IMG/VR virus record: IMGVR_UViG_2877948078_000005
Coordinates: 1 to 50,138 of that record
Length of the DNA stretch: 50,138 nt
Origin: a virus
Lineage: Duplodnaviria; Heunggongvirae; Uroviricota; Caudoviricetes
Strand: one strand, 5' to 3'
Below are positions 6,001-9,000 of this stretch, piece after piece. A program made the position numbers. Each line of letters opens with the position of its first letter. The first letter of the stretch is position 1.

Positions 6001-9000
6001 ATCCGCGGCTCTGTGCCCCCGAAACCATCCGGGACCGTCTGGTCACAGTACTGCCCGATGGCATACAGTGCCCACTTGTCCACATCCGCGGCCCCCAGGC
6101 GTTTTCCCATCCCGTAGCGCGGGTGGGTCAGCATGTCCCACAGGCACCAGGCCGGGTTATTGCTGTATGCCGGTTTCAGACTCCCGTCCCAGATACCGCT
6201 GTAGGTGCGTTTTTCCGGGTCATAGTTTGACGGCACCTGAATGATGCGGCCGCGGATATGGTAGTTCACCACCATCTGCTGGCCACCGAACTGCTCCGCA
6301 TCCACCTGCAGCCCCACAATGGCCGTGTTCGGGTAACACTGTTTCACATCGATGATTTCGGTGTATGACGACCACAGCGTTCTGTTCTGCAGCTGGTCCG
6401 TGGTGCTGTCCGCCGTCACCCTGACCATCCGGATGTTAAAGGGGCGCTCAGGGAGATTATTCAGAATCACCGACGTCAGGTACTGCGAGGTGGTCTTGCC
6501 GTTAATGGTGACATCCTTCTCCGTCACCCAGTTACCGTTACGCTCAAGCTGAATCAGCAGCCGGACAGAAGAGGGATTACGGTCACCCTTTGAGGTGGTC
6601 TCCACCAGTGACTGCACCCCGAAGGTGACCCGCAGACGGTCAATGTTCGCTGACGTGATGGTGCGCGTCACCGGCTTTGCCTTCGTCACTTCCACGCCCA
6701 GTGCGGTTTCCGCCCCGGAGGACTCAAAGCCTTCCGGCGGTGTCTGCTCCTGCTCCCCGGCACGCCAGACGGCGGTCACACCGTGTATCACGGGATTACC
6801 GTCCGTGTCCGTCAGCGGGGTTTTGTTCACCAGAATACTCTGCAGTCCCTTCACCGGGCCTTCCACCGGTCCCTCACCGATGGCATCAATCACGCTCATC
6901 ATCTGCGTGGATTTGAGATTGTCCTTCGCCTCACGCGGTGTGTGCCCCTTGCCGCCCCCTTTACCCACTCTGTCCCCCTCTCCTGTCTGATGTCTGAATC
7001 TGTTTATGCCCAAAAACAACAGGCACCCCGGAGGGTGCCTGTGTCGTGACGGAATAAAAATTCTGAGTTTATTCACATTTTTGCAAAATCCTGGTGGCGC
7101 TTATAATTTCTCTGCGTTACAGTTTTTTGCCGTGACATAATAATTCCTTACAGTTAATCTTCGTATCTCTTCCCGCAGCTCCGCAACACTGCGGGATTTT
7201 TTTATTTTCATCCCCGCCCGATAACCACCACTTTCCCGTCACCGCCCTCATCACGGGTGCTGATGTCCTGGGATATCCGTCGTGAACCAACCAGCATTTC
7301 ACCGTAAGGCACCGGCATCGGGTTACCCTGGGCAATCATGTTGTCCAGTGAGGAGAAATACGTGTTCCGTTTACCATTATCTGTTGTCGTGGCAGACGGT
7401 GTTTTCGCCCTGGGGGTGAGCATCTGCGTGATACCCCCCACCATCATGGCCACCCCAAGATTACCGATGACAGCACCAATACCGGTCCAGCTGAACACAT
7501 ATCCCACAACAGCCAGAACAGCACCGGCCACCACCTGAAGAACACCGCCGTTTTTTGCCCCCTCCGTCCGGGGCACCAGATGGATAACATCCCCGTCATT
7601 CAACGGCTCACATACTCTGGAATGAAGCTCCTGTTCAGATACATCACTGCCCGCAATGCGTAACTGATACCATCCCTCATACAGTTTCTGCCTGAATCCC
7701 GGCACCTGCAGCGACAGGGCACGGATGGCCTCCGCTGCCGTGTTCACATACAGACTGATGCGGCGACCAAATCGTTGTAAATCCCCGTGAAGGCAGATGC
7801 GGACCAGTGGCGGTGACGCCAGACAGAATGCGTTCGTCGTTGCCATTTTTCAGAATACCTCTCCCGTTTACTCAGTTGTTCAGGTATATGGTGAAGCAGG
7901 TCACCGTTGCCACAGTAAATGGCGGCATGATTCGGCACCGATGCGCCAAAGCAGCACAGCAGGATATCGCCCGCCTGTGCACAGGACGGAGACACCCGGT
8001 AAAAGCCGTTTTCCGCCAGGTTGTCCAGGTACAGGTTCTGGCCGTTGCGCCACCAGTCATCCTCACGGTGAAAATCCGGCATCTCAATCCCCGCCAGATG
8101 GTATGCATCCCGGAACAGGGTGTAACAGTCCGTCACACCGTGTTCAAAGCGCCGTCCGGTCAGGTGCGGCACACAGCGGAACCGGTGAATTTCACCCCGG
8201 CAGACCAGCCACCAGGGCAGGGCACTCTTTATCTGCAGCCGCCGGTCCGCCTCGCTCAGCCAGGGCAGACCACCGGGATGACTGTGGACCAGTGCCACAA
8301 TCTCCCCCTGCATCTGTGCCTGCAGCCAGTCTTCCGGTGCAATACGAAAATACGCCTCCGGCTCTGCGGAGATATTCACGCAGGGCTGGTACCGTTCGCC
8401 CTCCGGGGTGCTTATCACGAAGCCGCACGACTCCGCTGGCGCACACCGCCGGGCATGCGCCAGAATCGCTGATTCAGTCTGTGTCATAAAACGGGATTTA
8501 CTGCGAAAGTTTATTGATGGAAAGGAAACCGCCAAAATTGACCGCCATGCCGCGCATCTCACACCCGCGCATGCATTTACTGCATCTGTCCTTCCGGATA
8601 TCCGTGGTGGGGTTGTCGAACTCATCCGCCACTGCCGGACCGTTATACCCGCACTCATCGCCCCGGTAATCCCACATACAGGTGTTCGCCAGCATGATGC
8701 GACCGGGAAACAGCGCCCCGTCCGTCTCCGTCGGTGTCGCCAGCACAAACGAGGCCGTCATGGCCGTCAGCTCTGATAACTGCTCCACCACCCACCGGTC
8801 CGTCAGCTCCTGCTCCGGGTCTGCCTCAGGATTGCCTGCCACAAAATTCACCGCATCCAGAAAACGCGCATACACCCGGCGACGGACCACCGTGGCACCC
8901 ACCAGGCTCTGCAAATCCTCCGCCATCCCGGTGACCAGCCCGAAAAGATTGGACACTGTCAGCGACGGGCGGGCACTGCTGCCCTTTCCGTTCATCTCAA

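Follow-up and report, generated by a model that had tools for sequence, protein, structure and literature searches.

A PasB/EcOnc22-24-type small RNA cassette in the I-J tail gene gap of an Stx2d prophage

The closest described relatives of the element reported here are two sets of Hfq-associated small RNAs (sRNAs) from prophages of pathogenic Escherichia coli, PasB and EcOnc22-24. The element itself lies in a gap between the tail genes I and J of IMG/VR virus record IMGVR_UViG_2877948078_000005, whose whole length of 50,138 nucleotides we call the window. PasB (pathogenicity-associated sRNA B) comes from prophage PP6 of the enteropathogenic (EPEC) O127:H6 strain E2348/69 (PMC8550237). It is an 83-nt RNA encoded on the minus strand of NC_011601.1 (1466343 to 1466261; Northern probe AATCCCGCAGTGATCGCGGAGCT; PMC8550237, Table S6), and it was seen on Northern blots and had log2 fold changes of -6.8 and -2.4 in an hfq deletion (PMC8550237, Tables S2, S5 and S6). 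Its 5' end was estimated from RNA-seq coverage and the Northern size, and at least 37 of its interactions in RIL-seq (ligation and sequencing of interacting RNAs) are in a supplementary table of the same paper (PMC8550237). PasB is more abundant in overnight static lysogeny broth (LB) than in mid-log Dulbecco's modification of Eagle's medium (DMEM). A 2026 survey by Zhu et al. (bioRxiv 10.64898/2026.05.13.724894) locates its seed in the single-stranded stretch that immediately precedes the terminator, and finds PasB to be the least diverse of the Pas sRNAs.

The second set was found in enterohaemorrhagic E. coli (EHEC) Sakai, where EcOnc22 (prophage Sp15), EcOnc23 (Sp14) and EcOnc24 (Sp11) are homologous plus-strand peaks from Hfq crosslinking and analysis of cDNA (CRAC), and where EcOnc22 gives a Northern band of about 85 nt and is described as "destabilised" without Hfq (PMC4104026, Table S2). 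Nowhere in the literature we searched is it stated that EcOnc22-24 and PasB are the same: the PasB row of Table S6 carries no note of an EHEC homolog, and the term "EcOnc" is absent from the 2026 preprint.

Two wider groups are also relevant. The morons of lambdoid phages (Juhala/Hendrix, cited in PMC4104026) are extra DNA between conserved phage genes, with a promoter and terminator of their own, and are active in the repressed prophage. AgvB and AsxR are prophage-encoded, Hfq-binding RNAs of 51-60 nt from EHEC lambdoid prophages, which also have their own promoter and terminator and occupy a moron site downstream of PR' or 3' of stx.

The gap and its homology to PasB and EcOnc22-24

The window is identical to a region of E. 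coli 2014C-4135 (NZ_CP027310.1, from position 895664), where it forms part of a lambdoid prophage converting for Shiga toxin (Stx) 2d, with its genes on the minus strand. By the RefSeq gene ends, the gap between I and J comprises exactly positions 6969-7207 (239 bases), which is the interval that an earlier note, written from the sequence alone, had singled out as a candidate sRNA locus. The identical public record has no annotation there. The note took I and J of phage lambda to be essentially contiguous, which is wrong: 60 nt lie between them in lambda, so the window's gap contains about 180 nt of additional DNA. The heading of the note put the promoter-terminator pair on the "antisense strand", a wording that holds if antisense to the tail genes is meant, which is the plus strand of the window, as the body of the note says.

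We are confident, short of certainty, that the gap holds an autonomous unit of the moron type, pointing against the tail genes, and that this unit is one copy of the PasB/EcOnc22-24 sRNA cassette. In E2348/69 the tail genes are on the plus strand, with I ending at 1466255 and gpJ starting at 1466496, and the coordinates of PasB therefore put it in the I-J gap, antisense to both genes and 5 nt from the stop codon of I. The window's unit has the same position, the same antisense orientation, and a terminator that likewise abuts the stop codon of I. The alignment extends over the whole of both gaps, and identity between the RNAs is 79%, with a shared upstream block, -10 boxes, U-tract, CUCCUU- and UUAAUCUUC-type motifs, and CCCGCAG/CUGCGGG+U7 terminator. 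The target of the PasB Northern probe matches window positions 7177-7199 at 21 of 23 positions, the mapped 3' end of PasB is the U7 homologous to that of the window, and the position homologous to its annotated 5' end is 7128. Most of the divergence of about 20% between window and PasB falls in the stretch that separates the U-tract from the first seed motif (GUGACAUAAUAAUU against CGAGUAACAAAAACAACU), and there is a terminator loop shorter by 1 nt. The alignment contains no stretch of exact identity long enough for default megablast, and the 2026 survey probably did not include the window subtype among its PasB copies.

The EcOnc22-24 cassettes have the same location. Their published coordinates refer to NC_002695.1, and all three lie at equal offset in I-J gaps of the current Sakai record, between ECs_2944/2945, ECs_2720/2721 and ECs_2161/2162, respectively. 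Two anchors give the coordinate shift: the AgvB1 peak at 1941783-1941835 (NC_002695.1) corresponds to an Rfam match at 1941920-1941981 (NC_002695.2), which is a shift of +137 to +146, and EcOnc04 (about 222 nt, in Sp11) coincides with STnc100 only under a similar shift. A third anchor, sought from EcOnc10 and EcOnc15, yielded nothing usable. After the shift, the EcOnc24 peak lies at about 3160-3228 of locus L001, within the predicted RNA at 3146-3236 and antisense to the tail genes. The three Sakai cassettes are identical to one another and share with the window the I-J gap, the strand relative to the tail genes and the cassette itself, at 80% identity; they are unlike the window in the -35/spacer region, where AATAAT is the -10 box, and in the body (GAUGCCUGAAAAAUAACUCCAUAAC). 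The Sakai RNA is 74% identical to PasB.

We built a profile hidden Markov model (HMM) from cassettes at least 90% identical to the PasB or the Sakai type, excluding the window and its close relatives. This profile matched window positions 7049-7207 on the plus strand over the full length of the model (103.9 bits, E = 1.9e-31) and had no other significant match in the 50 kb window. Judged by these alignments, the window copy represents a third subtype that shares 79-80% identity with each of the validated ones, and so a new subtype, at the level of sequence, in an sRNA family already known and validated by experiment. The note had predicted a plus-strand, Hfq-type prophage sRNA of about 80-100 nt, and this prediction is supported by the validated homologs PasB and EcOnc22-24, which share its I-J position and its orientation. 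For the window copy itself, we infer expression, 5' end, seed and targets from its homologs, and the direction of transcription from the promoter and terminator.

The unit resembles lambdoid morons in being extra DNA flanked by conserved phage genes, in having a promoter and terminator of its own and in its likely activity in the repressed prophage, but its cargo is a noncoding RNA, it points against the direction of the operon, and such cassettes can occur in 1-4 tandem copies. With AgvB and AsxR it shares the prophage location, the promoter-terminator architecture and, as a prediction, Hfq binding, whereas its predicted length is 75-90 nt and its place is in the tail operon, some 23 kb away from stx2 (30857-32097). 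AgvB and AsxR, to which the note had suggested an alignment, are another family at another prophage site: their Rfam models (RF02702 and RF02703) have no match in 6800-7400 at E <= 10, although RF02702 does find the AgvB of Sakai. Rfam 15 gave no relevant match to the spacer, either for the whole window at the gathering score or for this region with a cut-off of E <= 10; sub-threshold chance matches to PsrR1 (18.8 bits) and Plastid-rpl20 (19.9 bits) were driven by the terminator. The I-J gaps of Sakai gave the same null outcome, and the cassette family is not in Rfam 15.

Anatomy of the cassette and of the I-J junction

The features of the gap and its flanks are as follows (ORF, open reading frame).

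7062-7080, plus strand: upstream block TCTGA-N6-TCACATTT, the most strongly conserved stretch of the cassette apart from the terminator
7080-7107, plus strand: promoter candidate P1, with -35-like TTTGCA/TTGCAA (7080-7086) and a perfect -10 box TATAAT (7102-7107)
7118-7123, plus strand: promoter candidate P2, an alternative -10 box TACAGT, with a predicted start at about 7129-7130 and an RNA of about 75 nt
7114-7203, plus strand: PasB/EcOnc22-24-type small RNA, by homology; 90 nt from P1, about 75 nt from P2
7123-7170, plus strand: predicted single-stranded body, unpaired in the minimum free energy and centroid folds; putative seed
7123-7128, plus strand: U-tract, followed by an A-rich stretch
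7144-7150, plus strand: motif UUCCUUA, anti-Shine-Dalgarno-like; CUCCUUA in most relatives
7153-7162, plus strand: C/U-rich motif GUUAAUCUUC, from column conservation
7171-7203, plus strand: intrinsic terminator, made of UCCCGCAG (7171-7178), a loop, CUGCGGGA (7189-7196) and U7 (7197-7203)
7042 to 7019, minus strand: terminator-like hairpin of 10 bp (7 G-C) with loop UCCG, followed by UUGUUUUUGG
6969-7018, minus strand: leader of J, with the Shine-Dalgarno sequence, heptamer repeats and the hairpin's U-rich tail (7018 to 7009), by direct reading
6983 to 6973, minus strand: Shine-Dalgarno sequence of J, GGAGAGGGGGA, from the sequence
3501-6968, minus strand: J, RefSeq ORF with a GTG start
7208-7846, minus strand: I (tail assembly), with its stop codon TGA at 7208-7210
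7211 to 7101, minus strand: ORF of 36 amino acids whose ATG overlaps the stop codon of I (ATGA)
7006-7140, plus strand: ORF of 44 amino acids that runs through the hairpin and promoter

To compare these features across the family, we assembled 119 IMG/VR loci by terminator pattern and 80 loci by similarity of the I protein, which gave 92 unique cassettes. They are conserved in blocks: the upstream block, a variable -35 region, a -10 box that is [T/A/C]ATAAT in most copies, GCGTTAC, the U-tract, (A)CUCCUUA-type and GUUAAUCUUC-type motifs, and the terminator.

The strong plus-strand terminator that the note had described is present (7171-7196, then T7 at 7197-7203). Its stem has 8 bp and is rich in G+C (-13.1 kcal/mol), and its U-run ends 4 nt before the stop codon of I. 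When folded individually, all 92 unique cassettes end in a hairpin followed by a U-run, with loops that vary freely. The commonest stem is CCCGCAG/CUGCGGG; others are CCCACAG/CUGUGGG, which is changed on both sides, and a class with CCCGU..AAUAU/AUAUU.CGGG. From 36 diverse RNAs of the family, aligned with MAFFT, RNAalifold recovered no more than 4 pairs of the terminator, as the divergent class of terminators is misaligned, and we replaced it by per-sequence folding and a count of pairs on the stated structure. By that count 89.6% of cells are paired, and 2 of the 8 pairs are changed on both sides. The stem and U7 together are the predicted Hfq-binding 3' module, and the UUCCUUA motif upstream of them would be complementary to sequences of the Shine-Dalgarno type.

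Two promoters are candidates for driving the RNA. The TTGCAA-N15-TATAAT promoter-like element of the note is present on the plus strand as P1 (TTGCAA at 7081-7086, then 15 nt, then TATAAT), although the promoter scan scores it as TTTGCA-16-TATAAT (10/12). Its predicted start is at about G7114, giving a 90-nt RNA. The -10 box of P1 varies among the 92 cassettes, being TATAAT in 30, AATAAT in 23, CATAAT in 10, TATCAT in 10 and degenerate in some. The TAnnnT of P2 is kept in nearly all of them and is better conserved than the P1 box, with T5 and A6 invariant in alignment A2, and in E2348/69 the equivalent of P2 (TAGTGT) ends 6 nt before the reported 5' end of PasB. The Sakai Northern band of about 85 nt falls between the sizes predicted from P1 and P2 (91 and 75 nt). 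P1 may be the chief promoter or one of a pair, or it may not be in use.

The upstream block is conserved far better than the -35 region: most of its columns have a majority base at 90% or more, whereas the -35 region is poorly conserved. The window has the variant TCTGAGTTTATTCACA, which is common to 7 unique cassettes. The block is a candidate activator site (a CRP/FNR-like TGA-N6-TCA) or a candidate UP-like element. With up to one mismatch, the window has 5 occurrences of the CRP core TGTGA-N6-TCACA where 1.8 would be expected, so that a single match is not significant. The centre of the CRP-like site is 44.5 nt upstream of the P1 start and about 61 nt upstream of the P2 start; this spacing is a poor class II fit at -44.5 from P1, and a class I fit only if P2 is the promoter. 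What suggests a shared activator is the conservation of the block together with the higher level of PasB in static overnight LB.

The unit has the anatomy of an Hfq-dependent sRNA that acts in trans, and it most likely works as follows. A sigma-70 promoter (TATAAT at 7102-7107, TACAGT at 7118-7123, or both), downstream of TCTGA-N6-TCACATTT, would drive a plus-strand RNA of 75-90 nt that ends at the hairpin and U7 (7171-7203). By homology, this RNA would be made in the lysogen independently of phage late transcription, and Hfq would bind and stabilize it through the 3' hairpin and U-tail and through internal U-rich and A-rich stretches. Its C/U-rich, unstructured body (UUCCUUA...GUUAAUCUUC) would then pair in trans with mRNAs of the host and of its islands, most simply by covering ribosome-binding sites.

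On the minus strand, the hairpin terminator that the note had placed in the spacer is also present, with its 10-bp stem and U-run. It folds at -25.5 kcal/mol (z-score -4.8), none of 200 shuffled sequences folds as well, and TTGTTTTTGG follows directly. A hairpin with a U-run directly precedes the ribosome-binding site of J in every class of gap we examined (loci L139 and L194 are examples), including gaps without a cassette, such as the lambda-like gap of 60 nt and a gap of 198 nt. G-U pairs on the tail-sense strand are retained in several variants of its stem; one variant (L157) favours the opposite strand, and one is fully compensatory. On this comparison the hairpin is a part of the I-J junction and not of the sRNA cassette, separate and older. 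With its U-run on the tail-sense strand, we read it as a putative terminator or attenuator-like element of the tail operon, and lambdoid I-J junctions seem to share it as a conserved feature. Between this hairpin and the Shine-Dalgarno sequence of J is a small tandem repeat of variable copy number, the heptamer TCAGACA (TGTCTGA on the plus strand, 6984-6997), with 2 copies here and 2-5 in relatives.

Spread of the family and tandem arrays

Absence of the spacer from related prophages had been named in the note as grounds against an sRNA; the spacer is in fact widespread. Sequences like it are present at the I-J position in 149 phage records, which nearly all come from Stx-converting phages or lambdoid relatives, as well as in 800 of 5426 complete E. 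coli genomes, at a median of 3 places per genome and with no annotation among the matches listed. Phage 1720a-02, for example, carries a near-identical spacer (95-97%). The cassette is conserved from the upstream block to the U-run, and the flank on the J side differs between groups of loci, which marks the cassette as a mobile unit.

The number of cassettes per gap also varies. Among 75 gaps anchored on the I protein, 4 have no cassette, 53 have one, 9 have two, one has three and 8 have four. Examples of tandem copies are L131:2146-3052 (four copies), L144:2182-2896 (three) and L125:2140-2563 (two); none of these arrays lies in the window. The copies are arranged head to tail and have diverged from one another, and some of their -10 boxes are degenerate (GTGCAT, AACCTT, TCCTCC). 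The four-copy array, 907 nt long, is found at full length in 67 of the 5426 complete E. coli genomes, unannotated among the matches listed, and at full length in no phage record. Tandem copies of PasB are not described in the 2026 survey, where the smallest pasB-pasB distance is 28 kb and Pas sRNAs are typically single in a prophage (bioRxiv 10.64898/2026.05.13.724894).

A scan of genome contigs with a 15-base pattern returned almost nothing except chance matches, and a profile re-screen left Escherichia albertii and three tiny contigs. These three, which carry complete or partial cassettes, are assigned to Parendozoicomonas haliclonae (L250, 460 bp), Streptomyces flavalbus (L301, 3.4 kb) and Asaia platycodi (L220, 546 bp), and are most simply explained as contamination by E. 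coli or phage DNA. E. albertii is the only credible host other than E. coli seen in the contig scan.

Because cassettes occur in 0-4 tandem copies, with diverged bodies and terminator loops but a nearly invariant upstream block, we tentatively suggest, while regarding it as somewhat less than an even bet, that the I-J junction is a dedicated landing pad on which an array of sRNA genes can expand. The window subtype would then belong with PasB and EcOnc22-24 to one family, much larger and more diverse than it is in the literature we searched, co-regulated by a single host factor (perhaps of the CRP/FNR type) and directed at different sets of targets, and the window copy would be a distinct specificity variant on an Stx2d phage.

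The window also contains other known RNAs and some damaged genes. An STnc100 sRNA (Rfam RF02076, 158.7 bits) lies at 30572-30784 on the minus strand, just downstream of the gene for stx2d subunit B (30857-31126), and no anti-sRNA of the AsxR/AgvB type was found in this Stx2d prophage at the Rfam gathering score. A pair made up of C4 antisense RNA (RF01695) and isrK (RF01394) occurs twice on the minus strand, at 39994-40182 and 40840-41027, in or beside two genes for Rha-family regulators, one of which is marked as truncated in RefSeq; the two pairs are a duplicated immunity module of the P1/P7 c4-ant type. RefSeq flags frameshifts in three minus-strand genes, those for the Q antiterminator (34102-34481), the terminase large subunit (20252-22179) and the tape measure protein (9522-12118), so that either the prophage is defective or the assembly carries indel errors.

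Alternative explanations and implications

Several observations weigh against identifying the window's unit as a working member of the PasB/EcOnc22-24 family. The spacer of P1 is short (15-16 nt), and the predicted 5' end of the window's RNA is ambiguous by about 15 nt, depending on whether P1 or P2 is used. The divergence of about 20% from both validated subtypes is mostly in the 5' half of the body, and the targets may differ or expression may be weak. Covariation in the terminator is modest, as most of its pairs are invariant. The placement of EcOnc24 follows from a coordinate shift with two anchors and not from direct re-mapping. Finally, the PasB and EcOnc22-24 literature that we searched names no validated target for any family member.

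We also considered what else the gap could be doing. It is unlikely that the main effect of the cassette is in cis, on the tail operon, by cutting or destabilizing the late transcript between I and J or by dampening J and the genes downstream of it, in place of control over distant genes. Such a role would fit an RNA with perfect complementarity to the late mRNA between the I and J cistrons and with a promoter head-on to late transcription, a cassette that is always antisense to the tail genes and always between the stop codon of I and the leader of J, and the terminator-like hairpin that adjoins it on the tail-sense strand. However, the RNA has no overlap with the I coding region or with the ribosome-binding site of J, only with spacer DNA that the cassette itself carries, and otherwise similar tail operons exist that lack a cassette, so it is dispensable for tail expression. 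Moreover, uninduced lysogens express PasB, and its Hfq-dependent chimeras with many unlinked transcripts indicate action in trans. A purely cis-antisense role is therefore less likely, and cis and trans roles are not mutually exclusive.

We regard it as quite improbable that the window copy, in a prophage that is probably defective, is a relic that has lost its expression or function. Cassettes do decay, since some of those in tandem arrays have degenerate -10 boxes, and Q, the terminase large subunit and the tape measure gene are marked as frameshifted in RefSeq. Against this, all of the conserved blocks are intact in the window (the upstream block, TATAAT, TACAGT, the U-tract, both seed motifs, the 8-bp stem and U7), and expression in this family is independent of phage late functions. 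There is very little chance that the gap encodes a small protein. The note's statement that it contains no ORF is too strong, as an ORF of 36 amino acids on the minus strand and one of 44 on the plus strand both exist, and the ATGA overlap would permit translational coupling of the former to I; but it stands in the sense that neither is conserved in relatives. The ATG of the minus-strand ORF is absent in 35 of 76 related gaps, and in the others it opens frames of 2-72 codons that encode frame-shifted, unrelated peptides (most commonly of 19 amino acids), while the plus-strand ORF is missing in several relatives. Conservation tracks the promoter, seed and terminator blocks and not codons. On this lack of ORF conservation we reject a coding role for the gap.

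With the unit taken as an sRNA gene of the PasB/EcOnc22-24 family, an unannotated 239-bp gap of an Stx2d prophage becomes a named and testable gene, whose architecture the note had recognized from sequence alone. No function for any family member is shown in the PasB and EcOnc22-24 literature that we searched. Roughly one in five complete E. coli genomes carries the family, often in multiple copies, outside the annotation of Rfam and RefSeq and under two unconnected names. If its subtypes differ in their targets, each Stx phage would bring a slightly different Hfq-dependent regulator into the network of its host.

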